Assembly: GCA_020725105.1 (NCBI GenBank)
Contig: DYFQ01000004.1
Span: 3,127-67,126 of the forward strand
From: Symbiobacterium thermophilum
GTDB taxonomy: Bacteria > Bacillota > Sulfobacillia > DYFQ01
Reading direction: 5' to 3'
Length of the DNA: 64,000 nucleotides
A program made the translations under genes and the position numbers. Shown here piece by piece: positions 3,772 through 21,572 of the stretch. The notes below the pieces were generated by a model. The model did no database searches. It was not told where the DNA came from and saw nothing but the letters and a program-made list of their open reading frames with translations. Each line of letters begins with the position of its first letter. Within the stretch, counting starts at the first letter, position 1.

Positions 3772-4605
3772 CTACCACCAGGCCCGCCGGAAGTCGGGAA
3801 CCGGAGTTTCCACCGGCACGTACTGGACCGAAGGGCGCCTGCCCGTGGGCTGGGGAAACAGTTCCATCAGTTCATAGACCTGCCGGGGCAGCCCCCCTCT
3901 GGCCGGCAAACCCAGGGCCTGGAGCTGTTCAAGGCCGATGGGGTAGTCGTGGGTCCAGCGCCCGCCGGTGAGTTCCTCGGCCACCCGGTCGGCCTCGGCC
4001 TCGGGGAGCTTGTCGGCCAGGATGTCGCGCACCGTCTCACGCATCTGGTACAGCGCCTTCTCGGCCACGTCGGCCAGGACCAGGGTCTTGTCGTCCACCC
4101 GGTCCTTGTTCTTCCGCTCCACGGCCCGGAGGATGGAGACGGCGGGCAGGCCGCCGATCTGCGGGTCGATGGGGCCCAGCACGGCGTTTTCGTCCATCAG
4201 GATCTCGTCGGCCGCCAGGGCGATGAGGGTCCCGCCGGACATGGCGTAGTGTGGCACGATCACCGTCACCCTGGCCGGGTGCTTGCGGACCGCCCGGGCG
4301 ATCTGGTCAGCCGCCAGCACCAGGCCGCCGGGCGTGTGGAGGATGAGATCGATGGGCATCTCCGGCGGCGTGAGCCGGATGGCCCGCAAGACCTGTTCGG
4401 AGTCTTCGATATTGATGAAGCGGGCCAGCGGAATGCCGAGAAAACTCAGGGCCTCCTGGCGGTGGATGAGGCTGATGACCCGGGTGCCCCGGCGGGCCTG
4501 CAACCCGACAATGGCCCTCAGGCGGGCCCGTTCTATCTGGCGCATGCGCCAGATGGGCAACACGACGGCCCAGAGGATGAAGGCGATCCAGATCAGCGAC
4601 TGCAC
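3772..4605 (-). CDS. Membrane-anchored ClpP-class serine protease (SDH / S49 family, SppA-like)
   Basis: N-terminal TM helix (IWIAFILWAVVLPIW) followed by a ClpP/crotonase-fold region (ILHTPGGLVLAADQIARAV, SGGTLIALAADEILM). Confidence 0.7.
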   Translation of the reverse strand: MQSLIWIAFILWAVVLPIWRMRQIERARLRAIVGLQARRGTRVISLIHRQEALSFLGIPLARFINIEDSEQVLRAIRLTPPEMPIDLILHTPGGLVLAADQIARAVRKHPARVTVIVPHYAMSGGTLIALAADEILMDENAVLGPIDPQIGGLPAVSILRAVERKNKDRVDDKTLVLADVAEKALYQMRETVRDILADKLPEAEADRVAEELTGGRWTHDYPIGLEQLQALGLPARGGLPRQVYELMELFPQPTGRRPSVQYVPVETPVPDFRRAWW

Positions 4606-4800
4606 CGGCGAGTCTCCCTTCGCCCGCAGCCCTTAGCATGCGGCCGGCGGCACCACTTCATCCGGCGCCGCACCTCGGGCACCTCGGGAACGACCAGGTC
4701 TCGCCAGCAGGGCTCACGGCCGCCCGGGATCAAGGCCGGTCAGAATAGGAGCCTGGGCCGGGTGGCAGCCTATGGAAGCCCGCCGGAAGGAGGCGCTGCC

Positions 4801-5862
4801 TTGGCCCGTCAGCCAACCCATGCCGACCTGGAACCCACCGTGCGACGCCTGGCCGGCCAGGTGTCGGACCGGCTGGAACGCTGGCTTGGCCGGTCTCCGG
4901 GTCTGGCCGGCGGCAAGCGCCTGCGGGGCGTCCTGACGCTCATGGTGGCGGAGGCGCTGGGCGGTGACCCGGAAGCCGCCCTGGAATCCGCCGCGGCGGT
5001 AGAACTGATTCACACCGGGACGCTGCTCCAGGACGACTGGCTCGACGGCGACGTCCTCCGCCGGGGAGGAGTGCCCGTCTACATTCTCGACGGCCCCCGG
5101 CGAGCCGTGCTCACCGCCGACCGTTACTTCGCCGCCGCCGTCCGCCGGGCCGCCGTCCACGGTCCGGCCCACGCCGCGGAACTGGCGGCGGCCCTCGAGG
5201 AGATGGTCCAGGGGGTCCTCCGCGAGGACCTGCCGGGACTGTTGCGCCGCGGCTGGGCGCGGGGCCTCCCGGCCGGCGAGTACCGGGCCATCATCGATGG
5301 CAAGACCGCCCGGCTGTTTGTCAGCGCGGCGAGGCTCGGAGGCATGACCGCCGGCGCCGGCCCGGCCGTGCTGGCCGCCCTGTCCCGCTACGGGCGCCAC
5401 CTGGGGCGGGCCTACCAGCTTACCGACGACCGGCTGGACCTGGAAGCCCTCGACCCGGCCGACCTGCACTGGCCCCGCCTGGCCGGCGCGGCCGCGGCCC
5501 TGCTTTACTTCGCCCCCGACGTACTGCGCCGGGCGCTGGAAGCCTGGTTCGCCGGCGCCGGGCCGGGAGGCCAAAGCGCGGGGGGCGAAACGGAAGGCTG
5601 GTTCACGCTGGAACTCAGCCGCCGGGTAGGCGCGGCCATCGACCGGGAGGTCGAACGGGGGATCCAGGGATGCAGGCGCAGCCTGGCGGGCCTGCCGCTC
5701 TCCGCCCGCGACCGCGCGCTCCTGGCGGCCTTCCCCGCCTACTGCGTGGCGGCCTTGCGGGCCGAAGCGGGCGCGCCCGCGGGTATGGCGCGGAAGGGGT
5801 CCACTCGAACCCGGGGAAGTCGCCGGAAGGACCGCAAGAACCAGGACACCAGCTCGCGGTAG
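4801..5862 (+). CDS. Polyprenyl diphosphate synthase (trans-isoprenyl diphosphate synthase family)
   Basis: First DDxxD-like motif in LIHTGTLLQDDWLD, then GKTARLF, then second DDxxD motif YQLTDDRLD. TTG start at 4801 with GGAAGGAGG RBS. The 5' part of tracked ORF 3949..5862 is antisense to the protease gene and was excluded. Confidence 0.75.
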   Translation: MARQPTHADLEPTVRRLAGQVSDRLERWLGRSPGLAGGKRLRGVLTLMVAEALGGDPEAALESAAAVELIHTGTLLQDDWLDGDVLRRGGVPVYILDGPRRAVLTADRYFAAAVRRAAVHGPAHAAELAAALEEMVQGVLREDLPGLLRRGWARGLPAGEYRAIIDGKTARLFVSAARLGGMTAGAGPAVLAALSRYGRHLGRAYQLTDDRLDLEALDPADLHWPRLAGAAAALLYFAPDVLRRALEAWFAGAGPGGQSAGGETEGWFTLELSRRVGAAIDREVERGIQGCRRSLAGLPLSARDRALLAAFPAYCVAALRAEAGAPAGMARKGSTRTRGSRRKDRKNQDTSSR

Positions 5863-7145: not shown

Positions 7146-8546
7146 TCACGGACGACCTGGCGCAGGCGCTAGCGTGAGTTCCCGGGCGACGCGGTCCACG
7201 TCGCCGGCCCCCACCGTCAGCACCAGGTCGCCGGGGCGGACCTCCCGGCGCAGGAGCGTCACCACGTCGTCCAGGGCGGGAACGTGGCGCGCGGTACTCG
7301 GTGCCCGGGCGTTGATTTCCCGGGCCAGGTCGGCCGAACTGATGTCGCCCGGGTCCTCCTCGCGGGACGGATAGATGTCGGGCAGCACCACCAGGTCGGC
7401 GGCGGCCAGTTCCTCGGCAAACTTGTCCAGCAGGGCCTTGGTCCGGCTGAACAGGTGGGGCTGGAACACGCACCACAGCCGGTCCGGGTTGAACCGGCGG
7501 GCGGCTTCAAGAGTCACCCTGATGGCCGCCGGGTGGTGGGCGTAGTCGTCGTATACCGGCGCGCCGTTCACCGAGCCGACCAGTTCGAACCGGCGACGGA
7601 CGCCCCGGAACTCGCTCACCGCCTCCAGCGCCGCCGGCCCGGAGACACCCAGCCTGGAACAGGCGGCCAGCGCGGCGAGGGCGTTTGACACGTGGTGGCG
7701 GCCGGGGAGCGAAAGTCGGACCCGGCCAGCCTGGGCGCCGTCCACCTCCAGCGTGAACTCGGGGTAAGGGGCATGCTCCACGTAGCGGACGTCCCGCGCC
7801 CGCCAGCGGGCCCCCCCGGCGAGTCCGTAGGTGATGACCTCGGCCCGGACGTCGCCCGCGCCGATCACCTCCCGGACCCGGGGGTCGTCGGCGTTCGCCA
7901 CCAGCGCCCCTTCGGGTGGCACCAGGCAGGCGAACCGGTGGAACGCCCGGACCACGTTGTCCATGGAGTGGAAGTAGTCCAGGTGGTCGTCGTCGATGTT
8001 CAGGATGACGCCCAGGTAGGGTTTGAACCTGAGGAAGGTCTCCGAGTACTCGCAGGCCTCGGTGACCAGCACGTTGCCGCTGCCCAGCCTGACGTTGCCC
8101 CCCAGCGGCTCGACCTCGCCCCCGACGAGGGCGGTGGGGTCCAGCCCCGCCCGGACCAGGGCCAGGGCGATGAGGGCGGTGGTGGTGGTCTTGCCGTGGG
8201 TGCCGGCGACCGCCACGCCGAAACGGGCCTGTTCCATCAGGGTGCCGATCAGCTCGGCCCGGGTCATCACCGGGATCCCCGCGCGGCGGGCGGCGGCCAG
8301 TTCGGGGTTGCTCTCCTTGACGGCGGCGGTGTAGACCACGAGGTCGGCGCCGTTGACGTGCTCCGCGGCGTGGCCCCGGTAAAAGGCCAGCCCCTGGTCG
8401 ACCAGGCGGCGGACAAGGGGCGAGTCCTTCAGGTCCGACCCCGACACCCGGTAGCCGCGGGCCAGCAGGTAAGCGGCCAGGCCGCTCATGCTGATGCCGC
8501 CCACGCCCACGAAGTGCACGTGCTTTACCTTCGGGTGAAGGGTCAT
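7146..8546 (-). CDS. murC: UDP-N-acetylmuramate--L-alanine ligase
   Basis: Mur ligase motifs VHFVGVGGISMSGLA and GTHGKTTTT. Full-length similarity pattern to MurC. Confidence 0.9.
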   Translation of the reverse strand: MTLHPKVKHVHFVGVGGISMSGLAAYLLARGYRVSGSDLKDSPLVRRLVDQGLAFYRGHAAEHVNGADLVVYTAAVKESNPELAAARRAGIPVMTRAELIGTLMEQARFGVAVAGTHGKTTTTALIALALVRAGLDPTALVGGEVEPLGGNVRLGSGNVLVTEACEYSETFLRFKPYLGVILNIDDDHLDYFHSMDNVVRAFHRFACLVPPEGALVANADDPRVREVIGAGDVRAEVITYGLAGGARWRARDVRYVEHAPYPEFTLEVDGAQAGRVRLSLPGRHHVSNALAALAACSRLGVSGPAALEAVSEFRGVRRRFELVGSVNGAPVYDDYAHHPAAIRVTLEAARRFNPDRLWCVFQPHLFSRTKALLDKFAEELAAADLVVLPDIYPSREEDPGDISSADLAREINARAPSTARHVPALDDVVTLLRREVRPGDLVLTVGAGDVDRVARELTLAPAPGRP

Positions 8547-8849
8547 CGCCGCCCTTGACACCTCAGGCCTTCTTCTCATGCGGTATGCGCCCGGCCACGA
8601 CGCCGTGTACGGCGACCCGTTGACGGCATTCGACGCCGGGCAACGGGATCATTCGCCCTGGTTATCATATCACGCCTGGCTGGAAATCATCCCCTCCCCC
8701 TCCGGGGGCAGCCGTTACCCGGCCGGGCGGTAAAGCCCGTCTCCGCCTGGGCCGATATAGACGGCGGAGGCGTTTCGCGGGACGGTGCATCCCGGACCCG
8801 GCGAGCCGTGTATCCTAACGACGCCCCCAGTTCTGGAGGAGGGGTTGGC

Positions 8850-11234: not shown

Positions 11235-11576
11235 TCACTCCTCGCCTCCGGCCGAGGTCTCCTCCGCCACCCAGCTCAGGTAGTCGGGATTGCCCTGGAG
11301 GACCGGCAGGGCGTTGACGGCCGGCACGGAGTAGCTGTGGAGTTCTTTCACGGCGGCGATCAGCCGGTCGAAGCAGGCCCGCCTCGTCTTCAGCAACAGC
11401 AGGGCCTCCCGGTCCTCGGTCAACTGGCCCTGCCAGTGGTAGTAGGAAGCGATAGCGGGAACGATGTTGGCGCAGGCGGCCAGGCGCCTGGCGACGACCT
11501 CGCGCCCGATGCGGCGCGCCTCTTCCTCGTCACTCGCGGTGATGTAGACGACGATGAACTCGCCATTCGCCGCCAT
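11235..11576 (-). CDS. cutA: Divalent-cation tolerance protein CutA
   Basis: 113 aa with CutA1 signature (FIVVYITASDEEEARRIGREVVARRLAACANI, KTRRACFDRLIAAVKELHSYSVPA). Confidence 0.85.
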   Translation of the reverse strand: MAANGEFIVVYITASDEEEARRIGREVVARRLAACANIVPAIASYYHWQGQLTEDREALLLLKTRRACFDRLIAAVKELHSYSVPAVNALPVLQGNPDYLSWVAEETSAGGEE

Positions 11577-11580
11577 GGTG

Positions 11581-12171
11581 TCACACCTTCCCCTCGCGCC
11601 CGGCCGGGGCGTCGGCCAGCCGCATGGCCAGAAAACGCTGAAGGTCTTCCATTCCCGGCGGCAACTGGCTGGTCCGCAGCCGCGACTCGGCCTCCCTCAC
11701 GGCCGCCCAGGCGGCCGTGACCACCTCGGCGGAGTAGTTGTAACGCCGCCTGGCGGTTTCGAATTCATCCCGGCCGGCGACGGTGACCGGACCGCCCGGG
11801 GTGCCCACCACTTCCAGTTCCAGGTCAACCCAGGCCAGGGTGCCCGACCGGTAGACAAACCCTGGCAGGCAGACGTGAAAGTAGACCCGGTCAAGCCGGC
11901 CGTCGGGCCGGTAGTCGCCAAAGCAGTTGTACCAGTGCCGGGCACGGAAAACGCCCACGCAGGGGCGGTCCTGTTTGAGGACGAGACCCCTCCCCCGGTG
12001 GTCGAGGGAAGTGCCGGGGGCGATGTACAGCGCCAGGTCCTTCCCCGGCCGGTAGGCAACCTGACGGGCGGGGTACTGCACGTGCAGTTCCCCCCGGTAC
12101 TTGCGTACGGCGACGGTCACGGCGGGGCCGGCACGGGCCACCTCCAACCACTGCTCGAGCGACCGCTCCAT
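11581..12171 (-). CDS. DUF402-family protein (possible nucleoside tri/diphosphatase)
   Basis: 196 aa sitting 4 nt upstream of cutA. GGAAGGAGAGGGAGA RBS. The DUF402 assignment rests on a weak motif-level resemblance. Confidence 0.5.
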   Translation of the reverse strand: MERSLEQWLEVARAGPAVTVAVRKYRGELHVQYPARQVAYRPGKDLALYIAPGTSLDHRGRGLVLKQDRPCVGVFRARHWYNCFGDYRPDGRLDRVYFHVCLPGFVYRSGTLAWVDLELEVVGTPGGPVTVAGRDEFETARRRYNYSAEVVTAAWAAVREAESRLRTSQLPPGMEDLQRFLAMRLADAPAGREGKV

Positions 12172-12486
12172 TCTCCCTCTCCTTCCCCGCCGCTACCCTG
12201 CCGGGGCGCCACCCGGTGGTTCGTGGGGTGGCCGGGGCAACCCTGCCGGAGCAGCCCCGAGACGGGCAGGTCGGGACGGAGCAAGAGGCGGTTTTCCCGG
12301 ACCGATATTTCCCTGGAAAATTCGACGAGCAGCAGATGCCGAGACAGAGCAGCGGCCGGGCCGCTAGGGATCGCCGATCATGCCCCGGCCGAAGCTTCCC
12401 TGCCAACACGGCACGCTGGCCGCACGGCCTCCTGACCTCGTGAGGCCCCGCCCGCCACGGCCGGGAGCGACCGGCGGCGGGTAGCG

Positions 12487-12840
12487 TCACTCCGCCTGGG
12501 GGTGCCGAACCGGCGATACGTCCGCCTGTTGTCGGCGGGCGGCGGGCAGGCGCTCTTGCACCGCCTCGACCATGGTTTCCATGTCCACCGGGCGGTCGCG
12601 GCGCTCGTCGATGGTTATCTCGGTAACCACCCGGGGCGCCCCCCGGTCGAGCACGGTGCCGTGGACTTTCTGGGCCACGGCGAACAGGTCGGCCCGGTTG
12701 CCCTCCACCACCGTCCCCGTGGCCGTCAGGTCGTACTTCAGCCCGGCCGCCTCGATCGCGCGGCACGCTTCCGTAACGTAACTGGAAAAGCTGGCCGACT
12801 CGGTCCCGACCGGCGTGACTCGGATCTCCATGACCGGCAT
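12487..12840 (-). CDS. MTH1187/YkoF-family (DUF77) small ligand-binding protein
   Basis: The MPVMEIRVTPVGT...AGLKYDLTATGTVVEG pattern is typical of MTH1187/YqgV. ATG at 12840 with GGAAAGAGGAGGG RBS. A 177-nt GC-rich leader lies upstream. Confidence 0.7.
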   Translation of the reverse strand: MPVMEIRVTPVGTESASFSSYVTEACRAIEAAGLKYDLTATGTVVEGNRADLFAVAQKVHGTVLDRGAPRVVTEITIDERRDRPVDMETMVEAVQERLPAARRQQADVSPVRHPQAE

Positions 12841-13017
12841 CCACTGGCCCTCCTCTTTCCGCATGAACCTCCGGCCTCGCGCGAGACCTATTGTGCCCGG
12901 GGCGGCCGGCCACGCCACCAGCCGGCGCCGTCCGGCCGGGAACCGGAGCGGGGCACCCCGCCCTCCTCGCCCCGCCGCCGGGGCTGCGGTTCTCGGGAGT
13001 GCCCCGGTTTTCCCCTC

Positions 13018-13875
13018 CTAGCTGGCCGAGACTTCCTGGAAGGCGGGAGGGAAGTAGTTCCCGCCGTGGACGGACCGGATCCCGGCAACGAGCTCGGAGC
13101 TTGCGGCCCGCTTGGGGATGAACCCCACCGCGCCGGCCTTCCTGGCGACGACCATGTTCTCTTCCTCGTCGTACTGGGTCAGGATCAGCACCCGGATGTC
13201 GGGATACTGCTGCACTATCCGCCTGGTCGCTTCCAGACCGTTCAGCCCCGGCATCAGTATGTCCATCAGCACCACGTGGGGCCTCAAGACGGGCACCTTC
13301 TCGATGGCGTCGCGGCCGTCAACGGCTTCTCCCACCACCTCCATGCCCCTCTGCAGCCTCACCACGGCGCAGATGCCGTCCCTGACAATGGCGTGGTCGT
13401 CCGCTATCAAGACCTTGATCGTGCGCGGGGCAGCCTCGAGTAGTTCCCGAATTCGTGGCACCAGTGAGGCGGGCTCCACGGGCTTGGTGACGTAGTCCTC
13501 GGCCTCGAGCTGCATGCCCTCCGACCGCGTCCATCCCCGGATGGAACGTTCCTCGGACCGGGCATCAACCACCACCAGGGGCACCTGACGCCACCTGGGG
13601 TGCCGCTTCACCCACTGGTGCAAGGAGAAAGCCTGTCCTGCCGGGGCGAGCGTGCCCAGCACCACCAGGTCTGGCTCCACGGCGGCCATCAGTTCCCGGG
13701 CCTGGGCACTGTCAGAGGCGGTGAAGACCCGGTACGACCTGGCCTCCAGGGTCCGGCAAAAGGCCTGCACAAAAGCGGGCTCGTCGTCGACGATCATGAT
13801 GCGGCCCCCACCCCCGGGACCGGCCGCCCGTGCCGGTCCGGAATGGAGCAGTCTCCCGCGCTCCGCGTCTGTCAT
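13018..13875 (-). CDS. Response regulator with two tandem receiver (REC) domains and no output domain
   Basis: REC1 (RIMIVDDEP...LVVLGT...) and REC2 (KVLIADDHAIVRDG...VVLMDILMPGLNGLEATRRI...LILTQYDEEENMVVARKAGAVGFIPK), then the ORF ends. M1 carries the strongest RBS (AAAGGAGGGA). An alternative start is 13797. Confidence 0.75.
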   Translation of the reverse strand: MTDAERGRLLHSGPARAAGPGGGGRIMIVDDEPAFVQAFCRTLEARSYRVFTASDSAQARELMAAVEPDLVVLGTLAPAGQAFSLHQWVKRHPRWRQVPLVVVDARSEERSIRGWTRSEGMQLEAEDYVTKPVEPASLVPRIRELLEAAPRTIKVLIADDHAIVRDGICAVVRLQRGMEVVGEAVDGRDAIEKVPVLRPHVVLMDILMPGLNGLEATRRIVQQYPDIRVLILTQYDEEENMVVARKAGAVGFIPKRAASSELVAGIRSVHGGNYFPPAFQEVSAS

Positions 13876-13949
13876 CCTGGCCGTCCCTCCTTTACCGCGG
13901 TGTTCGACCGGGCCGCCCGGCGCGCTCGAGCCGCGCCTCGCCGGGCCGA

Positions 13950-14861
13950 TCAGTGACGCAGTACCTCGAGCTCCGCTGCCTCCAGGATGTCAGGCACCGC
14001 CTTCTCGTTGCCAACGGCCATGATGTGGACACCGTGGCATAGACGCTCCTCCCGGATGGCCCTCACGAACCGGGCGGCGATCTCTATGCCCTTGTCGCGC
14101 CCCTTCCCTTTCCCCGCCGAGGTCAACTCCTCGATGATGGCCCCGGGAACGGTGATCCCGGGGACGTTGTCGTTCATGAACCTGGCCATCCTGACCGAGG
14201 TGAGGACGATGATGCCGGCCAGGACGTACACATCGAACTGCGAGGCATACTGCATGAACCGGCGAAGGCTGGCCAGGTCGAAGATCCCCTGGGTCTGAAA
14301 GAACCGGGCCCCTGCGGCCACCTTCTTCTCGAACTTGATGAGCTGGGGCTCAATGAAGTCCGCCTCGGGGTGCACGGTCGCTCCGGCAAAGAACCGCGGG
14401 GCGCCCCGCAACGGGTTTCCGGAGAGATCCTGGCCGGACTCCAAGGTCCCCACCAGCCGCAGGAGCTGGACCGAGTCAAGGTCAAATACCGGCTTGGCCT
14501 CCTTGTGGTCTCCCACGTCCACCGAGTCGCCGGTCAGGCAGAGAACGTTGGTGATCCCCCGGGAATAGGCCAGGAGGAGGTCTGCCTGCAGGGCCAGGCG
14601 GTTGCGGTCCCGGCAGGTCACCTGCAGGATGGGTTCACCCCCGCGCTCCTTCACCAGGAGGCAGCCTCCCAGCGAGGGGAAACGCATCACCGAGCTCTGG
14701 TTGTCGGTGACGTTGATCGCGTCCACTCTGGTCTTGAGCAGGTCGATGAGGTGAACCAGCTCCGAGGCGTCCGCGCCCTTGGGCGGGCCGACCTCCGCGG
14801 TCACCACGAACTCGCCGGAGTTCAGTTTCTCCTCAAGCAGGCTGTGGGCCATCTGTCTCAC
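13950..14861 (-). CDS. metF: Methylenetetrahydrofolate reductase, catalytic subunit
   Basis: Full-length MTHFR TIM barrel (FVVTAEVGPPKGAD, QVTCRDRNRLALQADLL, YVLAGIIVLTS). Confidence 0.9.
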   Translation of the reverse strand: MRQMAHSLLEEKLNSGEFVVTAEVGPPKGADASELVHLIDLLKTRVDAINVTDNQSSVMRFPSLGGCLLVKERGGEPILQVTCRDRNRLALQADLLLAYSRGITNVLCLTGDSVDVGDHKEAKPVFDLDSVQLLRLVGTLESGQDLSGNPLRGAPRFFAGATVHPEADFIEPQLIKFEKKVAAGARFFQTQGIFDLASLRRFMQYASQFDVYVLAGIIVLTSVRMARFMNDNVPGITVPGAIIEELTSAGKGKGRDKGIEIAARFVRAIREERLCHGVHIMAVGNEKAVPDILEAAELEVLRH

Positions 14862-15525
14862 CCGGGCCGCCGGCCCTGCTGGTGATCCTCCGCGGACGGG
14901 GAATCGTCCGGAAGTTCCTGGGCGGATAGTACCGGCGCATCTTCTCCAGCTGGTTCAGGGTTTCCAGCCGGCGGTAGATCAGCACCCAGCCGCAGTCCAT
15001 TTCCGGGCTGGCCTCGCACTTGCCGTTCTTGGTACCGGCGCACGGACCGTTGAGCATCCCCTTGGTGCAGCGGGTGATCGGACAGATGCCACCGGTATCG
15101 GCCAGCCGGCAGTCGCCGCAGGCGGCGCACCGCTCGTCCCAGACCCCCCACTCGTCCGCCATGCCCACGAAGGAGGTATTGACTCCGGGCAGCACCGGCA
15201 GGTCGGGGAAATGCTCGGCTATGGCCTGGACTCCCACGCCACAGCCAAGGGACAGCACGGCGTCCACCTCCGCGACCCTGTCCTTGAGCAGGTCCAAGAA
15301 CTCGAGGTCGCACTGCCGCTTCAGGGTGTGCTCGAGGAAGATCCGCGGCTCTCCCCCAGCCCGCGCCCGCGCCACCCTGAGGGCATGGTGCAGATAGGAG
15401 ACCTCGCGCTCGCCCCCGGCACCGCACACGGTCATGCAGGTGCCGCAGCCCACGATGAGGACCCTGGAGTAGGGGGCGAGCATCCTTGCCATCTCGTCCA
15501 GGGGCTTTTGCTCCGCGATGATCAA
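14833..15525 (-). CDS. metV: Methylene-THF reductase small subunit (MTHFR_C, Cys-rich)
   Basis: Cys motifs CGTCMTVCG and CAACGDC...CPITRCTKGMLNGPCAGTKNGKCE are characteristic of MetV in acetogens. Its ATG overlaps the stop of the upstream oxidoreductase (ATGA). Confidence 0.8.
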   Translation of the reverse strand: MIIAEQKPLDEMARMLAPYSRVLIVGCGTCMTVCGAGGEREVSYLHHALRVARARAGGEPRIFLEHTLKRQCDLEFLDLLKDRVAEVDAVLSLGCGVGVQAIAEHFPDLPVLPGVNTSFVGMADEWGVWDERCAACGDCRLADTGGICPITRCTKGMLNGPCAGTKNGKCEASPEMDCGWVLIYRRLETLNQLEKMRRYYPPRNFRTIPRPRRITSRAGGPGETDGPQPA

Positions 15526-17657
15526 CGGCCTGCCTCCCGCCTCATGACCTCGGCCAGGTAGAGCCCGCCGACCCGCTCCACGAACCGGTCAAGCTCGACG
15601 GCCAGGTTCTCCGCGCCGCCCGCCAGCACGAACGCCTGAAGCCGCCCGGGCTCCACTCCGACCTGGGCCAGAGTCTTGCGCACCCTTTCCACTCGCTGGC
15701 GAAGCCAGAGATCGGTGTTTTCGCGGGCGCACTGCTCGCCGCACCCGGCCACGAAGACTGCCTCGCCGCCGAGCTCGAAGGCCTTCAGAAGGTGCTCTGC
15801 CTCGACCTTGGCCGCACACAGCACCGGCACGATCCAGACTCCCGCCCTCGCCCGCCGCCAGACTCCCGCCAGCGAGTGGGTGCCAAACAGCCCGTACTGG
15901 CAGCAAAAGCCAAGGATCAGGGGCCTGACCTTGGCCTCCGCGGCGGCATTCAAAGCGTGTTCAAGCTCCTCGTCGACCTGGCGTCGATCGTGTGGCTTGC
16001 GCAGGGCAATGGCGCGGGCAGGGCACTCTCCGACGCAGACGCCGCAGGCCTGGCATTGCTCCGGCGGTATCCGCACGTTGCCAGCCTCGTCAAGCCGGGG
16101 AACGTGGTATGGGCAGACCCTGAGGCAGGTGAGGCAGGCGGCGCACTTATCCTGGAAGAGGATCTCGGCACCCATCCCGCAGCGCAGGCACCGCCTGGCC
16201 TCGCTGACCGCGGCCTCCCAGTCGTACACCGCCTCGACCGGCTCGAAGCCCTTGCGCCTCGCCTCGGGCGCCAGCACGGGGGGCTCCATCCGCCCCGTCC
16301 GCCTGATCACCTCGACCGTGCGGGGTTCCAGGTCGCCTTCCAGCCTGGGCCCCGGGTCGCGGGGCTTGGGGTAACGGTGCTGCAAGTAGTCGTCAATGCG
16401 GTGGGCGGCCAGCCTGCCCTGGGCGAGGGCCCGCACGGCGGTGGCGGGACCGCTCACGGCGTCTCCACCCGCGAACACGCCCGGCCGGTTGGTGGCGAGA
16501 GTGACCGGGTCGACCTGTATGGTACTGCCTCTGCCGGTGCGGAGGCGGAAGTCCTCGGGAACCTGGGGCACCTGGCCGATGGCCGTGATCAGGGTGTCAC
16601 AGGACAGGTGGGTCGTCGTGCTCTCATCGTAGGTGGGGCTGAACCTTCCGTCCGCATCGAACACGCTAACGCACCGTATGCACTGCACGCCGGTGACGTG
16701 GCTATCCCCGCTGATCGCCCCGGGGCCCCAGCCGCAGTTGAGCGCAACGCCTTCCTCCACGGCCGCCTCTACGTCCTCGGCGGACCCCGGCATCTCCTCC
16801 CGCTTTTCCAGGCACACGACGTGCACCTCTCGCGAGCCCAGCCGCAGCGCCGTGCGGGCTGCGTCCATGGCCACGTTTCCGCCGCCTATGACAACCACCC
16901 GGTCGCCCAGGGAGGGCTTGAGGCCGAGGTTCACCTCCCTGAGGAAGGTGATGGCGTCCACCACTCCGGGGAGGTCCTCCCCCGGAACCCCGAGGCGGCG
17001 GCTCTGCTGGGCTCCGACGGTGACGAAGATCGCCCGGTAACCTAGCTGGAACAGCAGGTCCAGCGAGACCACGCGGGTGTTGGTCCGGATCTCCACCCCC
17101 ATGCGGGTCAGTCGCTCGACCTCAGCGTCCAGCACCGCCCGCGGCAGCCGGTACTGGGGAACCCCGCCCCGGAGCATCCCCCCCACCTCCGGGTGGGCCT
17201 CGAAGATGGTGACGGGATACCCTAGCTTGCGGAGGTAGTAAGCGCAGGCCATGCCGGCCGGACCTGAGCCAACGATGGCTACCCGCTCACTGTGGATCGT
17301 CTCCGCCTCCGTTTGCACCAGCCTGTCCCCGCCGAACTCGACCGCGAACCGCTTGAGCGCCCGGATGGCCACCGCGTTGTCCACCTGGGCCCGCCTGCAC
17401 TGGTCCTCACAGGGATGGCTGCACACGTACGCGCAGATCGAGGGAAAGGGGTTGCCGCTCCTGATCACCCGCAGCGCCTCGAGGATCCGACCCTGGGCCA
17501 CCAGGTCAACATATTCCCTTATGTCCTGGTACAATGGGCAGGCCGCCTGGCAGGGCGGGACCAGGCTCCGGTCGGCGAGCTGCCCCGTACCGGCCCTGGG
17601 GACTGGTGGCGCCGGGCTTGCCGGCGTGAAGCGCACGGCCTGTTCTCCTGCTATCAT
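15522..17657 (-). CDS. Fusion oxidoreductase: GltD/NfnB-like NAD(P)H-binding FAD/FeS module + 2x[4Fe-4S] ferredoxin domain + C-terminal MvhD-like domain
   Basis: N-terminus has GltD/DPD-type FeS (CQAACPLYQDIREYV...ICAYVCSHPCEDQC), then two dinucleotide-binding folds (VAIVGSGPAGMACA; VVVIGGGNVAMDAA). The ferredoxin domain reads CLRCGMGAEILFQDKCAACLTCLRVCP...CQACGVCVGECP. The MvhD-like domain is LILGFCCQYG...VPVLCAAKVEAEHLLKAFELGGEAVFVAGCGEQC. ATG at 17657 overlaps the kinase stop in ATGA fashion, and the stop overlaps the metV start. Confidence 0.8.
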   Translation of the reverse strand: MIAGEQAVRFTPASPAPPVPRAGTGQLADRSLVPPCQAACPLYQDIREYVDLVAQGRILEALRVIRSGNPFPSICAYVCSHPCEDQCRRAQVDNAVAIRALKRFAVEFGGDRLVQTEAETIHSERVAIVGSGPAGMACAYYLRKLGYPVTIFEAHPEVGGMLRGGVPQYRLPRAVLDAEVERLTRMGVEIRTNTRVVSLDLLFQLGYRAIFVTVGAQQSRRLGVPGEDLPGVVDAITFLREVNLGLKPSLGDRVVVIGGGNVAMDAARTALRLGSREVHVVCLEKREEMPGSAEDVEAAVEEGVALNCGWGPGAISGDSHVTGVQCIRCVSVFDADGRFSPTYDESTTTHLSCDTLITAIGQVPQVPEDFRLRTGRGSTIQVDPVTLATNRPGVFAGGDAVSGPATAVRALAQGRLAAHRIDDYLQHRYPKPRDPGPRLEGDLEPRTVEVIRRTGRMEPPVLAPEARRKGFEPVEAVYDWEAAVSEARRCLRCGMGAEILFQDKCAACLTCLRVCPYHVPRLDEAGNVRIPPEQCQACGVCVGECPARAIALRKPHDRRQVDEELEHALNAAAEAKVRPLILGFCCQYGLFGTHSLAGVWRRARAGVWIVPVLCAAKVEAEHLLKAFELGGEAVFVAGCGEQCARENTDLWLRQRVERVRKTLAQVGVEPGRLQAFVLAGGAENLAVELDRFVERVGGLYLAEVMRREAGR

Positions 17658-19312
17658 CTCCGGTCGTCTCCACCTTCGCGTCCCGTCCCGCCCGGCAGCG
17701 GTACTGTCACAGTGATCCGGGTTCCGCGCCCTGGTTCCGACTCGACCTGACAAGTTCCCCCGACCAGCTTGGCCCGTTCCTTCATGGTGAAAAGCCCTGC
17801 GCCCCGGCCGCCTGGCTCCACCCGCGTCAGCCGGCCAACCTCAAACCCCCGGCCGTCGTCTTCCACCCGGAGCACGCACTCGTTCTCGTCGCACTCCAGC
17901 CGAATGGAGGCATGCCTGGCGCCGGAGTGCTCCAGGATGTTGCCGATCAGCCCCTGCGCCACGCGGAAAAAGGTCATCTCCACCTCGGAGGGGAGGCGCT
18001 TGTCCATGCCCTTGAACTCCGTGGTTACGGCAATCCCCCGGGACTGCAGCATGTCCTTGGCGTAGCGCTGGATGGCGGCCGGCAGCCCGAGCTCATCCAG
18101 CAGGGTCGGCCGGAGCGCCTTCATCAGCTTGACGATCTCATTTCCCATGTGCACCGCCTGGGAGTAGGTCTTGTCCAGCATCTCGACCAGCTCGGGGTCG
18201 TTCACGCCCGTCAGCCCGACCATCTCGATGATCGCCTTGAGGTTCAGGGTGAGGCTCGTCAGGGCCTGACTGGTCCCGTCGTGGAGCTCCCTGGCGATGC
18301 GCTTTCGCTCCTCCTCCTGGGCGCTCAGGGCGCGCTGCAACAGGGCCTGGTAGCGTTGCCGCGCTTCCGCCAGCCGCGCGTAGAGCCTGGCCTGCTCGAC
18401 GGCGGCCCCCAGGTAGTCGCCGATCGACTTGAGCAAGGAGACGTCGTCGGGACTGAAGCGACCGACCACAAGGCTGGCCACGTTCATCACGCCCACCACT
18501 TCGCCCCGGCTCCTCAGCGGTATGCTGGCGAAACCCTTGAGCCCCTCGGCGCTGACCAGGTCGGGCCGGACCGTTCGAGGATCGGTGGAAAGATCCTCAA
18601 GCAGCATGGCCTCACCGGTCGCCGCCACCCGGCCCGCTATTCCCTCTCCCAGGGGTATCCGCATCTCCCGTACGTACTTGGGCGACAGGCCGCGGTGCAC
18701 GCGGTAGTGGAGGGTGTCCGTCTCCCGATCCACGAGCAGGATGCCCCCGCTCGAGCCGTTCACCAGCTCCAGGACGTTGTCCAGGGCGATGGTCAGGATG
18801 GAATCCAGGTCGTGAATGCCGCTCACCGCGCTCGAGACGTGATTGAGGGCGAGCAGCCTATGGTGCTGGCGAAGAATCTGGGTCTCCAGCTGGCGCTCGG
18901 CCGTAACGTCTCGTCTGAGCTCGAGGACGGCCCTCACCTTGCCCTGGCGGTCGCGGACCGGATAGGCACTGATCTTGAGGTATGTCTCTGCCCACGGGAT
19001 GCGGGCCGGATGGATGACGGTGGTCATGCGCCCGGACCGGAGCACGCTGCGCAGGGGACAATCCCAGAGGGGGGCCCCGCACGGTCGGTCACGATCATAG
19101 AAGACCTGGTAGCAAAGCTTCCCGACCGGTGATTCAACGCCCCTTCGCAGCCTGCTGCTGGCAGCCCGGTTGGCAAAGCGGATCCGGAACTCGCCGTCGA
19201 TGACCAGGAGGTCATCTTCCATGCTGTCCGCGATGTCCTGGAGCGTGATGTCGAAACCCGCCTGGCCGGAGGACTCCTGGATGACTATGTCCCGCGTGCC
19301 CACGTCTACCAC
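17654..19312 (-). CDS. Sensor histidine kinase, PAS-GAF-HisKA_3-HATPase
   Basis: Cys-containing PAS (CYQVFYDRDRPCGAPLWDCPL), a GAF domain, an H-box ELHDGTSQ (HisKA_3 / NarX-DegS type) and an ATPase G-box (GRGAGLFTMKERAKLVGG). Start is GTG at 19312 or 19303. Confidence 0.8.
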   Translation of the reverse strand: MVDVGTRDIVIQESSGQAGFDITLQDIADSMEDDLLVIDGEFRIRFANRAASSRLRRGVESPVGKLCYQVFYDRDRPCGAPLWDCPLRSVLRSGRMTTVIHPARIPWAETYLKISAYPVRDRQGKVRAVLELRRDVTAERQLETQILRQHHRLLALNHVSSAVSGIHDLDSILTIALDNVLELVNGSSGGILLVDRETDTLHYRVHRGLSPKYVREMRIPLGEGIAGRVAATGEAMLLEDLSTDPRTVRPDLVSAEGLKGFASIPLRSRGEVVGVMNVASLVVGRFSPDDVSLLKSIGDYLGAAVEQARLYARLAEARQRYQALLQRALSAQEEERKRIARELHDGTSQALTSLTLNLKAIIEMVGLTGVNDPELVEMLDKTYSQAVHMGNEIVKLMKALRPTLLDELGLPAAIQRYAKDMLQSRGIAVTTEFKGMDKRLPSEVEMTFFRVAQGLIGNILEHSGARHASIRLECDENECVLRVEDDGRGFEVGRLTRVEPGGRGAGLFTMKERAKLVGGTCQVESEPGRGTRITVTVPLPGGTGREGGDDRR

Positions 19313-19569
19313 CCCTGAGTGGACAATCCGGGCTGGCCACGTGTTGCCGCCGGGAAGTGGAGATGCTGCAGGGGATGGGCCAGGGCTTTCACGCCTCGGC
19401 CGCCAGCACGTTCAGTGCGTCGAACGGTGGCTGAAACTGCCGCGTCAGCGCGCACCTGGAAGGTACTTTAATCTTGAGCCACAGGCGCTTGGGCTGTCAA
19501 GCGTTCAGCGCCCTGAGGTTTTTGCGTCCGGTCCTTATGGCAACACCTCATTAATAAAACTACGAGAAT

Positions 19570-19599
19570 TTGACCCGTTTTCGGGATTAAGAGTAGAAT
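19570..19599 (+). promoter_or_regulatory. sigmaA-type promoter candidate for the downstream Cys-rich wHTH regulator
   Basis: TTGACC (19570-75), 18-nt spacer, TAGAAT (19594-99), inside an AT-rich island in an otherwise ~70% GC region. RBS AGGGAG lies before ATG at 19626/19632. Confidence 0.4.
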
Positions 19600-19625
19600 T
19601 TCTGTGAGGGTCCAACAGGGAGCGG

Positions 19626-20273
19626 ATGCCAATGATTCCCCAGGGCACCCGGGGAGAGATTCTTCAGTTGCTGAAACGCCACCGGGGGCTGACCATCGCC
19701 CAGCTGGCCAGGGAATTGGGGATCAGTCCCATGGCCGTCCGGCAGCACCTGATGCTGCTGGAGGGCGAGGGGCTGGTGGAAGGCGAGAAAATCCGGGGCC
19801 GCGTCGGCCGGCCGGGCCTCGCCTACCGGCTCACCCGCGACGGCGACGAGATCTTTCCCCGGCGCTACGACGTGCTGGCCGAAACCTTGCTGGACGCCGT
19901 GGCCGAACTGCACGGGCCCGAGACGGTAGACGCCCTGTTCCGGAAGCGGATGGAACGTCAGCTGGCCCGCTACTCCGAGCGCCTGGGCCACCTCGACCTG
20001 CCAGAACGGGTGCGGGAACTGGCCCGCATTCAGGCGGACGGCGGCTACATGGCGGAACCCTGGCGATCAAATGGCAATGCCCGGGGAGAGCATGGCTTTG
20101 TCCAGTACAACTGCCCCATCGCCCTGATCGCCAGGCGGTACCCCGTGGCCTGCCACTACGAGCTTGAACTGTACTGCCGGCTGCTGGGCGCGCCAGTGGA
20201 GCGGGTCGAGTGCATCGCCCAGGGCGGCACCTGCTGCCGCTACCGGATCGGGAACGGGCTGCCCGTCTCGTAA
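19626..20273 (+). CDS. ArsR-like winged-helix transcriptional regulator with C-terminal cysteine-rich domain
   Basis: N-terminal wHTH (EILQLLKRHRGLTIAQLARELGISPMAVRQHLMLLEGEGLV). The C-terminus carries CPIALIARRYPVACHYELELYCRLL...CIAQGGTCCRYRI. It is a paralogue of the CDS at 43031-43774. Confidence 0.7.
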   Translation: MPMIPQGTRGEILQLLKRHRGLTIAQLARELGISPMAVRQHLMLLEGEGLVEGEKIRGRVGRPGLAYRLTRDGDEIFPRRYDVLAETLLDAVAELHGPETVDALFRKRMERQLARYSERLGHLDLPERVRELARIQADGGYMAEPWRSNGNARGEHGFVQYNCPIALIARRYPVACHYELELYCRLLGAPVERVECIAQGGTCCRYRIGNGLPVS

Positions 20274-20279
20274 GCCGGG

Positions 20280-21572
20280 CTAGCCGCCGGCCGCCGCCTC
20301 CTTGACCCGGGTACCTTTCAGGAAGTAGACGGTATCCAGGCGGACCTTCCGGGCCACGGCCGTGATCTGACCGGCATCCACGCGCTCCAGGCCGGCAATG
20401 GCTTCGTCGGGAGTGTCAGGCCGGCCGTCCACGATCCCCCGCATGGTCCGCTCCACGTAGCGGCGGGGCTGATCGACCACGGTCCGCAGGGCGGTGGCCG
20501 CCGATTCCCGCGCCGCCAGCACCTCCTCGGGAGTGAAGTCCCCCCGGCCCATCGCCTCGAACTGCGCCTCCATGATCTCCAGGGCCTGCTCGAAGCGCGC
20601 GGGATCGATGCCCGCGAAGGCCAGCAGCAGCCCCTTGGACGGGTTCAGCCGGGCGTTGGCCGCGTAGGCCAGGCTGGCCCGCTCCCGGACGTTCAGGAAC
20701 AGCTTGGAGTTGGTGGTCCCGCCGACGATCCGGTGGTAAAGCATAAGCGCGTGGTAGTCAGGGTCGGCGTGGGCCACGTTGGTCCGGAAGCCCAGAAAGA
20801 GCCACCCCTGCCCCATCTCCTGCTCTTCCACGACCCGGCGGGCCCGGTCCGGCTGGTGGTAAACGGCAGTCGCCGGTAGCTGCCACGCCTCGCCCCGCTC
20901 CCACCTGAAGGTCCTCCGGGCCAGTTCGGCGACGGCGTCAGCGTCCACGTCCCCCACCACGAAGATGTCCACCGGGCTCCGGGCCAGGACCTCCTGGTGC
21001 AGCCGCCACAGGGAGCGCGGCCCCAGGGCCCGCACCCCCTCGACGGTGCCCAGTTCGTACAGGCCGAAGGGCTCGCCGCGGAACATCTCTTCCACGCACC
21101 GCTGGGCGGCGTAGGCCGGCTTGTTGTCGGCCAGGCGGGCAATTCGCTTCTCCTGCAGTGCCTGCTCCTGCGACACGTACTCGGGATCGAAGCCGCCGTT
21201 CCTGGCCAACGGCCGGGCAACCAGTTCGCCCAGGAACTCGAAGCCCCGCTCCAGTAGACCGGCCTCACCCGTGAAGCGGTCGGCGGGCAGTTCCAGGGTG
21301 AAGCCCAGGGTGTGGCGGTCGCCCACCTTGACCACGTCGGTGAAAAGGGTCGCGCCGTAAAGTCCGGCCAGGGCCGCCTCGATGTCCCGGGTCGTGGGGT
21401 GGCTCCGGGTGCCGCGGCGCAACACCGCCGGCAGCAGGGCGTTGCCGCTCACCCGGTCCGCTTCCAGCGGCAGGTGGAAGAACAGGCTCACCGTGGTCCG
21501 CTTGAACTTCCGGGTCGGCTCCACGTAAAAGTTCATCCCCGGGCCCAGCCCGGTCCGGTGAAAGCTCGCCAT
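20280..21572 (-). CDS. M16-family peptidase-like protein (non-catalytic partner; no HxxEH)
   Basis: Insulinase fold without the zinc-binding HxxEH motif. Sits 6 nt downstream of the catalytic M16 gene. Confidence 0.75.
   Translation of the reverse strand: MASFHRTGLGPGMNFYVEPTRKFKRTTVSLFFHLPLEADRVSGNALLPAVLRRGTRSHPTTRDIEAALAGLYGATLFTDVVKVGDRHTLGFTLELPADRFTGEAGLLERGFEFLGELVARPLARNGGFDPEYVSQEQALQEKRIARLADNKPAYAAQRCVEEMFRGEPFGLYELGTVEGVRALGPRSLWRLHQEVLARSPVDIFVVGDVDADAVAELARRTFRWERGEAWQLPATAVYHQPDRARRVVEEQEMGQGWLFLGFRTNVAHADPDYHALMLYHRIVGGTTNSKLFLNVRERASLAYAANARLNPSKGLLLAFAGIDPARFEQALEIMEAQFEAMGRGDFTPEEVLAARESAATALRTVVDQPRRYVERTMRGIVDGRPDTPDEAIAGLERVDAGQITAVARKVRLDTVYFLKGTRVKEAAAGG

Follow-up and report, generated by a model that had tools for sequence, protein, structure and literature searches.

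An output-less tandem-receiver protein, a pseudo-receiver joined to a NarL-type receiver, encoded next to metF or fdhA in related gene clusters

Response regulators with two receiver (REC) domains in tandem are widespread and poorly understood (PMC13535131, 2026). In DrdR of Xanthomonas campestris an N-terminal pseudo-receiver precedes a functional C-terminal receiver without any output domain, and this protein binds PilB, PilT and FleQ and alters their ATPase activity, both domains being required (PMC13507683, PMC13535131). A protein of the DrdR type in its architecture is encoded in the 64,000-nucleotide stretch of Symbiobacterium thermophilum DNA analysed here (contig DYFQ01000004.1; the whole stretch is referred to as the window), where its gene follows metF, which encodes the catalytic subunit of methylenetetrahydrofolate reductase (MTHFR). 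This tandem-receiver protein resembles DrdR in domain order, in the absence of an output and in size, and D148, D198, T231 and K253 of DrdR correspond to its D160/161, D205, T233 and K255. DrdR is, however, an orphan without adjacent kinase that controls pili and flagella, whereas the tandem-receiver protein has a dedicated kinase and is found in another setting. Its first receiver (REC1) is moreover a complete (beta-alpha)5 domain that keeps the acidic pair (DD) and the lysine, and the two proteins are likened by architecture, not by sequence homology.

Of the other described systems, PleD of Caulobacter (REC - pseudo-receiver - GGDEF) ranks first in structure when the whole chain is compared by Foldseek (E = 2.5e-13); its receiver and pseudo-receiver form a tandem whose packing changes on phosphorylation (PMC12632262). 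The order is reversed in the tandem-receiver protein, where the pseudo-receiver comes first, and the GGDEF domain is missing, so that the protein is not PleD-like; the superposition is poor as well (root-mean-square deviation (rmsd) ~16-17 Å over both domains, template modelling (TM) score 0.37), which means that the domain arrangement is not shared. In fact, for the best two-domain matches, i.e. PleD and a GGDEF regulator with paired receivers (3luf), the rmsd is 13-17 Å and the domain types alone match. With the NarL/FixJ regulators (VraR, LiaR, DesR, NarL) the protein has in common the sequence and fold of its second receiver (REC2), as well as an adjacent kinase of the matching HisKA_3 class, but it lacks the GerE/LuxR helix-turn-helix (HTH), carries an extra N-terminal pseudo-receiver and has Asn240 in place of Tyr in helix alpha4. 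Single-domain receivers that act as phosphate sinks branch signalling pathways, e.g. CheY1 of Sinorhizobium and LovR. These are likewise output-less receivers that share one kinase with a second regulator; they are single receivers, however, whereas the tandem-receiver protein has a conserved pseudo-receiver and persists where the competing regulator has been lost. REC1 itself compares with the pseudo-receivers of FrzS, ShkA, CikA and KaiA, since a receiver profile matches it and the acceptor aspartate is gone; such domains act through contacts with other proteins or by binding a ligand, and a few are inhibitors of a HisKA domain (PMC4395418, PMC12632262). The second acidic position is non-acidic in ~80% of pseudo-receivers (PMC12632262), compared with which REC1 is unusual in keeping both acids and the lysine and in having an invariant Asp at the Thr position.

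The initial annotation described a response regulator made only of two receiver domains, and this is borne out by Pfam, which finds two Response_reg (PF00072) stretches in the 285 residues (whole-protein E = 2.7e-42) and no further domain, by the stop nine residues past REC2, and by homologues with the same end. The GC content of the frame is 0.84 at third codon positions (GC3) versus 0.46 at second positions, in sequence of 70% GC, as is expected of a coding frame, and the open reading frame is a real gene. AlphaFold predicts two complete (beta-alpha)5 domains with five strands and five helices each (mean predicted local distance difference test (pLDDT) 85.8). A frameshift that hides a downstream HTH had been named as the observation that would undo the two-receiver claim, but no HTH was found in the translations of any of the three frames 3' of the gene, nor did tblastn with the GerE HTH of related regulators against the window give a match (best E = 3.3), and the claim stands. 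The tandem-receiver protein itself has no match to PF00196 (GerE), so that it lacks the C-terminal HTH by which members of the NarL/FixJ family are recognised, and the next gene 3', for a protein of the MTH1187/thiamine-binding-protein family, starts ~100 nucleotides (nt) further on.

The active-site positions were taken from an alignment to CheY, PhoB and NarL. At the position of CheY-D57, REC1 has Gly74 (motif LVVLGTLAP), and at that of CheY-T87 it has Asp104, while the acidic pair D30/D31 and the lysine (K131) are retained. In the AlphaFold model G74 lies at the C-terminal end of beta3 (residues 70-74), i.e. at the expected acceptor site. The catalytic pattern of two acids, acceptor aspartate and lysine, which had been read in both domains, thus holds completely for REC2, whereas in REC1 it holds for the acidic pair and the lysine but not for the acceptor; the Asp that was counted there is probably D69 of 'EPDLVVLG', five residues before the acceptor site. 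When orthologues were checked for both phospho-acceptor aspartates, as had been proposed, only D205 of REC2 turned out to be conserved, the REC1 position being an invariant Gly74 in 30 homologues. D104 and K131 are also invariant among these closest homologues (59-70% identity), and G74, D104, G114-W115 and E119 are invariant among 11 more distant relatives (35-44% identity) as well. By NCBIfam, residues 25-147 are nearest to PhoB/OmpR-type receivers. REC1 therefore does not have the full set of residues (DD, D, T/S, K) of a catalytically competent receiver, but shows the combination that marks a pseudo-receiver, i.e. a profile and fold match without the acceptor Asp. Judged by these residues, REC1 is an aspartate-less pseudo-receiver for which canonical Asp phosphorylation is predicted to be impossible, and the protein is accordingly to be seen as a pseudo-receiver plus a receiver, not as a double acceptor.

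REC2, on the other hand, has all five catalytic residues of a receiver active site, of which D205 and K255 are invariant and T233 nearly so among the 30 homologues. Residues 153-276 are nearest to UvrY/GacA, MctR and NarL-type receivers by NCBIfam, a profile search of the PDB gives LiaR/VraR at E = 7.5e-34, and Foldseek finds LiaR, DesR and VraR at an rmsd of 1.5-2.1 Å, the superposition on DesR of the DesK:DesR complex being 1.5 Å. A NarL-type receiver is thus paired with a HisKA_3 kinase, which is encoded in the same cluster at 17654..19312 and whose catalytic core resembles DesK and VraS.

The same architecture recurs widely. When 5.8 billion proteins were searched, more than 120 homologous clusters (at 90% identity) had E <1e-105; their members have 259-316 residues and PF00072 as their only domain and are 59-70% identical to the protein of the window, and the 30 aligned homologues end within ~20 residues of the same point. 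The named sources are metagenome-assembled genomes (MAGs) of Chloroflexota/Dehalococcoidia and one Thermoleophilia MAG, i.e. mostly Chloroflexota. Neither the architecture nor the active-site state of either receiver varies within the family.

Several homologues (P0005, P0010, P0013, P0028, P0046, P0120) are called with a basic N-terminal extension of 20-30 residues that is loosely conserved as S-R-x-S-R-L-x-K-S-N. Other homologues are called from a downstream start, which leaves ~140 nt of 'intergenic' sequence after metF. The extension may be either translated or a conserved nucleotide element.

Loci were collected by metagenome and genome scans, which give a sample, not a census, and all locus counts (loci are designated by L numbers) refer to the matches listed; 33 loci with a full-length homologue were examined, the window included. 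The tandem-receiver gene lies directly 3' of metF in 22 loci (window included), as the last gene of a unit in which a fusion oxidoreductase (OxRed) gene, metV and metF precede it, and directly 5' of fdhA in ten, so that metF or fdhA is the neighbour, on the same strand, in all 32 informative loci. In the window the distance to metF is 74 nt, on the same strand, in agreement with the earlier description of the gene as immediately downstream of metF, and metF is 69-82% identical in related clusters. In the first layout (type A) the order is kinase (PAS-GAF-HisKA_3-HATPase), REC-GerE regulator (217 aa), a gap of 180-270 nt, OxRed (GltD-like + 2x[4Fe-4S] + MvhD/FlpD), metV, metF and tandem-receiver gene. 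The second layout (type C; Dehalococcoidales and relatives) consists of a kinase without PAS (GAF-HisKA_3-HATPase), the REC-GerE regulator, a gap of 220-380 nt, the tandem-receiver gene, fdhA (a NuoG-like molybdopterin formate dehydrogenase (FDH) of ~908 aa) and nuoE. In the sole long contig of type C (L091, 2139..10831) the operon goes on with a 1024-aa NuoF+GltD-like fusion, metV and metF, which looks like a gene set for a formate/NAD(P)H-linked methylene-tetrahydrofolate (THF) reductase, distinct from the MvhD-containing fusion of the window. Dehalococcoidales-type loci in which the tandem-receiver gene heads the fdhA operon are L091, L008, L012-L016, L088, L089 and L092.

The conserved adjacency to metF or fdhA supports the functional link to the MTHFR operon that the initial annotation had drawn. 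Its further interpretation, i.e. that the protein may modulate the MTHFR complex, agrees with the operon link but left out the HisKA_3 kinase and the paralogous NarL-type regulator, which are among the strongest gene-linkage partners: a kinase gene is present within the cluster in 22 of the 25 loci in which enough sequence is visible. Since the family also adjoins formate dehydrogenase genes, a contact specific to MetF is not implied. The flanking genes vary by locus, and the module itself is therefore the conserved unit.

The REC-GerE regulator is encoded in most clusters as well, and its receiver and REC2 are sister paralogues. In a neighbour-joining (NJ) tree of 200 NarL-type receivers, taken from all fetched loci, 29 REC2 domains form one clade and 16 co-clustered REC-GerE receivers another, these being sisters; together, REC2 and REC-GerE receivers make up an exclusive clade of 50. 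The mean identity between the two groups is 54%, compared with 45% to other NarL-type receivers, and they have the derived residues I168, L174, M211, Q234 and Y235 in common, the sole strongly fixed difference being N240 in REC2 versus Tyr in the regulators, in alpha4. The consensus of helix alpha1 is nearly identical, DDHTmVRDGICAVLaL in REC2 and DDHTLVRDGIRALLAL in the REC-GerE regulator. Kinases dock mainly on helix alpha1, as is known from the DesK:DesR complex and from work on the specificity of kinase-regulator pairs. Together with the superposition on DesR, the near-identity of alpha1 therefore suggests that the single kinase of a cluster would serve both REC2 and the REC-GerE receiver.

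The regulator has, however, not been kept everywhere. In the window the kinase stop (17654-17656) overlaps the ATG of OxRed (17655-17657; ATGA), which joins the kinase gene directly to the operon of the enzymes, and neither the regulator nor the intergenic region found after it in relatives is present. No NarL-type regulator was found elsewhere in the 64 kilobases (kb) by tblastn with three cognate regulators, which matched REC2 only. On the contig of the closest homologue (L165) the kinase gene is followed, after 66 nt, by OxRed, the regulator being cleanly missing. A 318-nt gap in L169 (4955..5272) still encodes a regulator remnant, 'HTLVRDGIWALLSLS', and in L011 (7680..8532) an internal deletion and frameshifts have turned the regulator gene into a pseudogene. 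By comparison, L082 has the regulator and an operator-bearing region between kinase and oxidoreductase (4307..5225). The loss of the DNA-binding branch is thus recurrent, and the kinase and tandem-receiver genes are intact in all four regulator-less loci (window, L165, L169 and L011). The tandem-receiver proteins of the window and of L165 are only 66% identical, and the regulator-less state has therefore probably been maintained for long, if the loss is ancestral to both. In the genome under study the tandem-receiver protein is the kinase's only locally encoded partner.

In related loci, the gap 3' of the REC-GerE gene holds two to three copies of the 11-mer GGG[TG][AGT][AT][AT]T[CT]CC, often inside a CCAGGG...CCCTGG palindrome. 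The copies lie 5' of a -10-like box in both cluster types (e.g. L082 4961..5225, L083 5033..5305, L012 2016..2264, L167 5022..5225). In the loci from which the motif was derived there are 13 matches in 4.5 kb of gap versus 16 in 211 kb elsewhere, and in three held-out loci four in 0.73 kb of gap versus three in 51.6 kb elsewhere. These operator-like GGGTATTTCCC repeats, situated between the kinase/regulator genes and the operon of the tandem-receiver gene, are probably the operator of the REC-GerE regulator, going by their position and enrichment. The cluster of the window has no such operator, as the strict 11-mer gives two matches that are far from it; a looser pattern gives 199 matches in the 70% GC window, which is uninformative.

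REC1 also occurs without REC2. Against 1.84 billion representative proteins REC1 has few close relatives (seven with an E-value of at most 1e-30, ~25 at an identity of at least 38%), all of at most 290 aa, beyond which the matches are generic receivers. Stand-alone proteins of the REC1 type, with 131-166 aa, keep G74, D104, G114-W115 and E119, although the DD pocket is also gone in some of them, and one metagenomic relative has a weak two-CW Cys-rich domain in place of REC2 (29.5 bits, cut-off 35). In L170 the gene of the stand-alone pseudo-receiver is followed by HdrC-like and HdrA-like genes, and in L171 it heads an HdrA-like operon that is transcribed divergently from genes for a NarL regulator and a GAF-PAS-HisKA_3 kinase. 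As these stand-alone pseudo-receivers are always found beside flavin/iron-sulfur redox genes, it seems that the pseudo-receiver needs no covalently attached phospho-receiver in order to work. Within the tandem protein, REC2 would then best be viewed as the input and REC1 as the output.

Table 1. Features of the tandem-receiver module and of related loci. Coordinates refer to the window unless a locus is named.
Feature	Position	Strand	Basis
Gene of the tandem-receiver protein, 285 aa: pseudo-receiver, then NarL-type receiver, without output domain	13018..13875	(-)	Open reading frame; two PF00072 stretches; AlphaFold
Shine-Dalgarno sequence AAGGAGG, 10 nt 5' of the ATG at 13875	13886..13892	(-)	Read from sequence
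N-terminal extension, 24 residues, predicted disordered	13804..13875	(-)	pLDDT <50 for residues 1-21; present in closest homologue P0002
REC1 (aa 25-148), aspartate-less pseudo-receiver: D30, D31, G74, D104, K131; remodelled alpha4 with invariant G114-W115	13432..13803	(-)	Alignment; family invariants
REC2 (aa 153-276), canonical NarL/VraR-type receiver: D160, D161, D205 (acceptor), T233, K255	13048..13419	(-)	Alignment; profiles; Foldseek
metF (MTHFR catalytic subunit), directly upstream in the same operon	13950..14861	(-)	PF02219, E = 1.2e-35
metV (MTHFR C-terminal-domain protein)	14833..15525	(-)	PF12225, E = 4.4e-35
OxRed, fusion oxidoreductase: GltD/NfnB-like Fer4_20 + Pyr_redox_2, 2x[4Fe-4S], MvhD/FlpD domain	15522..17657	(-)	Pfam; NCBIfam
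Soluble sensor kinase PAS-GAF-HisKA_3-HATPase_c, presumed REC2 phosphodonor	17654..19312	(-)	Pfam
Loci with stand-alone REC1-type pseudo-receivers or the version fused to a weak two-CW Cys-rich domain	L170 185..685; L171 3205..3690; L172 224..1096		

Following these results, the best explanation, which we hold to be an evenly balanced proposition, is that the tandem-receiver protein serves as response regulator, itself without an output domain, in a small signalling module dedicated to the methyl-branch redox enzymes in the Wood-Ljungdahl/folate pathway. In general terms, it is fairly probable, judging from gene linkage and conserved residues, that the adjacent kinase phosphorylates REC2 and that the protein acts by protein contact through its pseudo-receiver. 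The kinase would phosphorylate D205 of REC2 and, where the REC-GerE paralogue is present, would phosphorylate that regulator in parallel. Phosphorylation of REC2 may then alter the relationship between REC1 and REC2 (cf. PleD) and thereby change what the pseudo-receiver can bind, so that REC1, as the effector surface, would bind or release a partner and the signal would leave by protein-protein contact and not by DNA binding. An output by protein contact fits with the persistence of kinase and tandem-receiver protein in the clusters without DNA-binding regulator, and DrdR provides the precedent for an output that acts on enzymes.

As to the partner, a co-expressed flavin/iron-sulfur enzyme complex (here OxRed-MetV-MetF) is tentatively put forward as the likeliest target, the kinase itself being the main alternative. 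In favour of the enzyme complex it can be said that the gene strictly adjoins enzyme genes, that stand-alone pseudo-receivers occur near Hdr-like genes, and that kinase and tandem-receiver protein survive without the DNA-binding branch. Taken to its full extent, such a reading would make of kinase and tandem-receiver protein a two-component system whose output is direct, phosphorylation-gated control of an enzyme instead of transcription, in which the docking site of the pseudo-receiver would be the flavin/iron-sulfur module of a methylene-THF reductase of the MetVF type or, among relatives, the FDH-NuoEF module, the flow of electrons along the methyl branch would be switched by a redox or metal signal read by a cysteine triad in the kinase PAS domain, and the REC-GerE paralogue of most relatives would be a transcriptional add-on branch that can be lost; it is unlikely that all of these parts hold together.

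Several points weigh against the proposed mechanism. The phosphotransfer from kinase to D205 is deduced from linkage and paralogy only, and in three loci (L006, L087, L092) the 2.3 to 5.4 kb of upstream sequence contain no kinase gene. No bootstrap supports the NJ tree, and the 'other' NarL receivers in it were picked by motif similarity. The AlphaFold predicted TM (pTM) score is only 0.64, which makes the mutual orientation of REC1 and REC2 unreliable. A REC-GerE regulator could lie elsewhere in the genome, the search having covered 64 kb. Lastly, two different enzyme sets (MetVF with oxidoreductase; FDH with NuoE/F) speak against a contact specific to MetF and are what one would expect if the target were common to all clusters, e.g. 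the kinase.

It is this last point that leads to the foremost alternative, which we regard as somewhat unlikely, namely that the protein is only a modulator within the pathway, i.e. a phosphate sink and/or a feedback inhibitor of the kinase. REC2 would then drain phosphoryl groups in competition with REC-GerE, the pseudo-receiver may clamp the dimerisation and histidine phosphotransfer (DHp) domain of the kinase, and the response would end as soon as the enzymes have been made. It is plausible that sister paralogues with a near-identical alpha1 compete for one kinase, and kinase and regulator are the partners that metVF-type and fdh-type clusters have in common. The layout is also that of a feedback loop, as the tandem-receiver gene is co-transcribed with the target operon, apart from kinase and regulator, across the gap that bears the GGGTATTTCCC repeats. 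Pseudo-receivers that inhibit HisKA domains are known from ShkA and CikA (PMC12632262). On the other hand, the regulator is deleted or decayed in four loci, that of the window included, with kinase and tandem-receiver protein intact, and a pure sink would be without competitor there, unless an unlinked regulator exists.

Alternatively, REC2 could form heterodimers with the receiver of the REC-GerE regulator and so either block or aid the binding of that regulator to DNA, in the role of anti-activator or co-activator. At 54% identity the two receivers are each other's closest relatives, and the nearest solved structures are LiaR, VraR and DesR, whose receivers dimerise when activated, as NarL-family receivers do. 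This is nevertheless improbable, because the REC-GerE gene has repeatedly been lost with the tandem-receiver gene retained, because stand-alone pseudo-receiver homologues without REC2 occupy the same genomic position, and because alpha4 carries the strongly fixed difference (N240 versus Tyr) between the two receiver clades.

A phosphorelay, in which REC2 passes its phosphoryl group to a histidine phosphotransfer (Hpt) protein and from there to a terminal regulator elsewhere, was one of the options named in the initial annotation and has a precedent in output-less receivers such as Spo0F, which act as phosphorelay intermediates; we consider it very improbable, as no Hpt or Spo0B-like gene is seen among the linked genes in the gene tables of the ~33 clusters examined, as HisKA_3 kinases with NarL-type partners normally transfer directly, and as the conserved pseudo-receiver would be left unexplained. 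Finally, an artefact or decay product, i.e. a NarL-family regulator that lost its HTH through frameshift or truncation and was fused by mis-assembly to another receiver, can be dismissed: REC2 is NarL-type and the automatic JGI name of several homologues is 'DNA-binding NarL/FixJ family response regulator', but there is no HTH remnant in any frame, the following gene is close by, the codon-position GC is coding-like, and the >120 clusters come from many samples with the same length and stop position.

With respect to the signal, the kinase PAS domain contains a cysteine triad, C-x11-C-x6-C (G-K-L-C-Y-Q-V...R-P-C-G-A-P-L-W-D-C-P-L; residues ~62-90, about 19070..19130 on the minus strand). The triad is invariant in ten out of ten aligned PAS-containing kinases, while the whole PAS domain is missing from the type C kinases, and its spacing and conservation suggest a site that senses a metal, an iron-sulfur cluster or the redox state. 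Weak resemblance is seen between the GAF domain and those of DevS/DosT and other proteins. In L169 (1963..4954) two tandem HisKA_3 kinases precede the operon, one of 435 aa with GAF only (fdh-type-like) and one of 551 aa with PAS-GAF (metF-type-like).

Around the module, a winged-helix regulator of 215 aa, whose C-terminal half is rich in Cys, is encoded divergently from the kinase (19626..20273, plus strand) and resembles cyanobacterial SufR (TIGR02702, 138.8 bits, below the cut-off of 178.8), and in L083 sufC/sufD-like genes lie 5' of the kinase. A link of iron-sulfur cluster supply to the iron-sulfur-rich operon may exist. On the same strand 3' of the tandem-receiver gene (11235..12918, minus strand) follow genes for the MTH1187/thiamine-binding-family protein, a DUF402 protein and CutA1, which are probably unrelated to the module, since they are not conserved beside it in other loci. 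The likely start of OxRed is the ATG at 17657. An Rfam scan of the whole window for riboswitches and leaders gave no match at the gathering threshold, and a promoter and terminator scan of 12300..20400 gave nothing informative on the operon strand, where terminator-like sites do not exceed the shuffle expectation.

The proteins of the cluster, from kinase to tandem-receiver protein, are 58-82% identical to versions from Chloroflexota/Dehalococcoidia, whereas the proteins nearest to MurC of the window (7146..8579), those of Bacillota MAGs, share only 58-59% identity with it. The cluster (13018..19312) has a GC content of 67.0-67.4%, the lowest of any 6.3-kb stretch, compared with 70.2% in the rest of the window and a window mean of 69.7%. 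The distant MurC beside a Chloroflexota-like cluster, together with the low GC of the latter, suggests that the cluster has been shared laterally between phyla, which is likely, though not proven; the GC3 of the cluster is fully host-like, so that base composition is weak evidence for such a transfer.

The sole trace of the module found in the literature is a remark on the deep-sea Chloroflexi single-cell genome DscP3, in which a putative two-component 'phoBR' flanks metF_1 (PMC5736913). Nothing specific was found in the literature on two-component control of metF or of the Wood-Ljungdahl methyl branch in these organisms. The module is a well-defined, conserved and uncharacterised regulatory unit on a pathway of little-known regulation, without being a system of a new kind.

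Regulators of the output-less tandem-receiver kind occur commonly in genomes and are almost unstudied, the one case that has been characterised, DrdR, acting on motility ATPases. The present family is a second sharply defined case, in which both the kinase and the paralogous DNA-binding branch are clear, and is tied strictly to operons of the MetVF reductase and formate dehydrogenase in Chloroflexota and a few other anaerobes. Its members should not be annotated as 'DNA-binding NarL/FixJ regulators', and they have a single phosphorylation site. If it is true that the protein acts on the enzymes, one-carbon redox enzymes would be under post-translational control by a two-component system; if the kinase is its target instead, it would be a natural example of built-in feedback.

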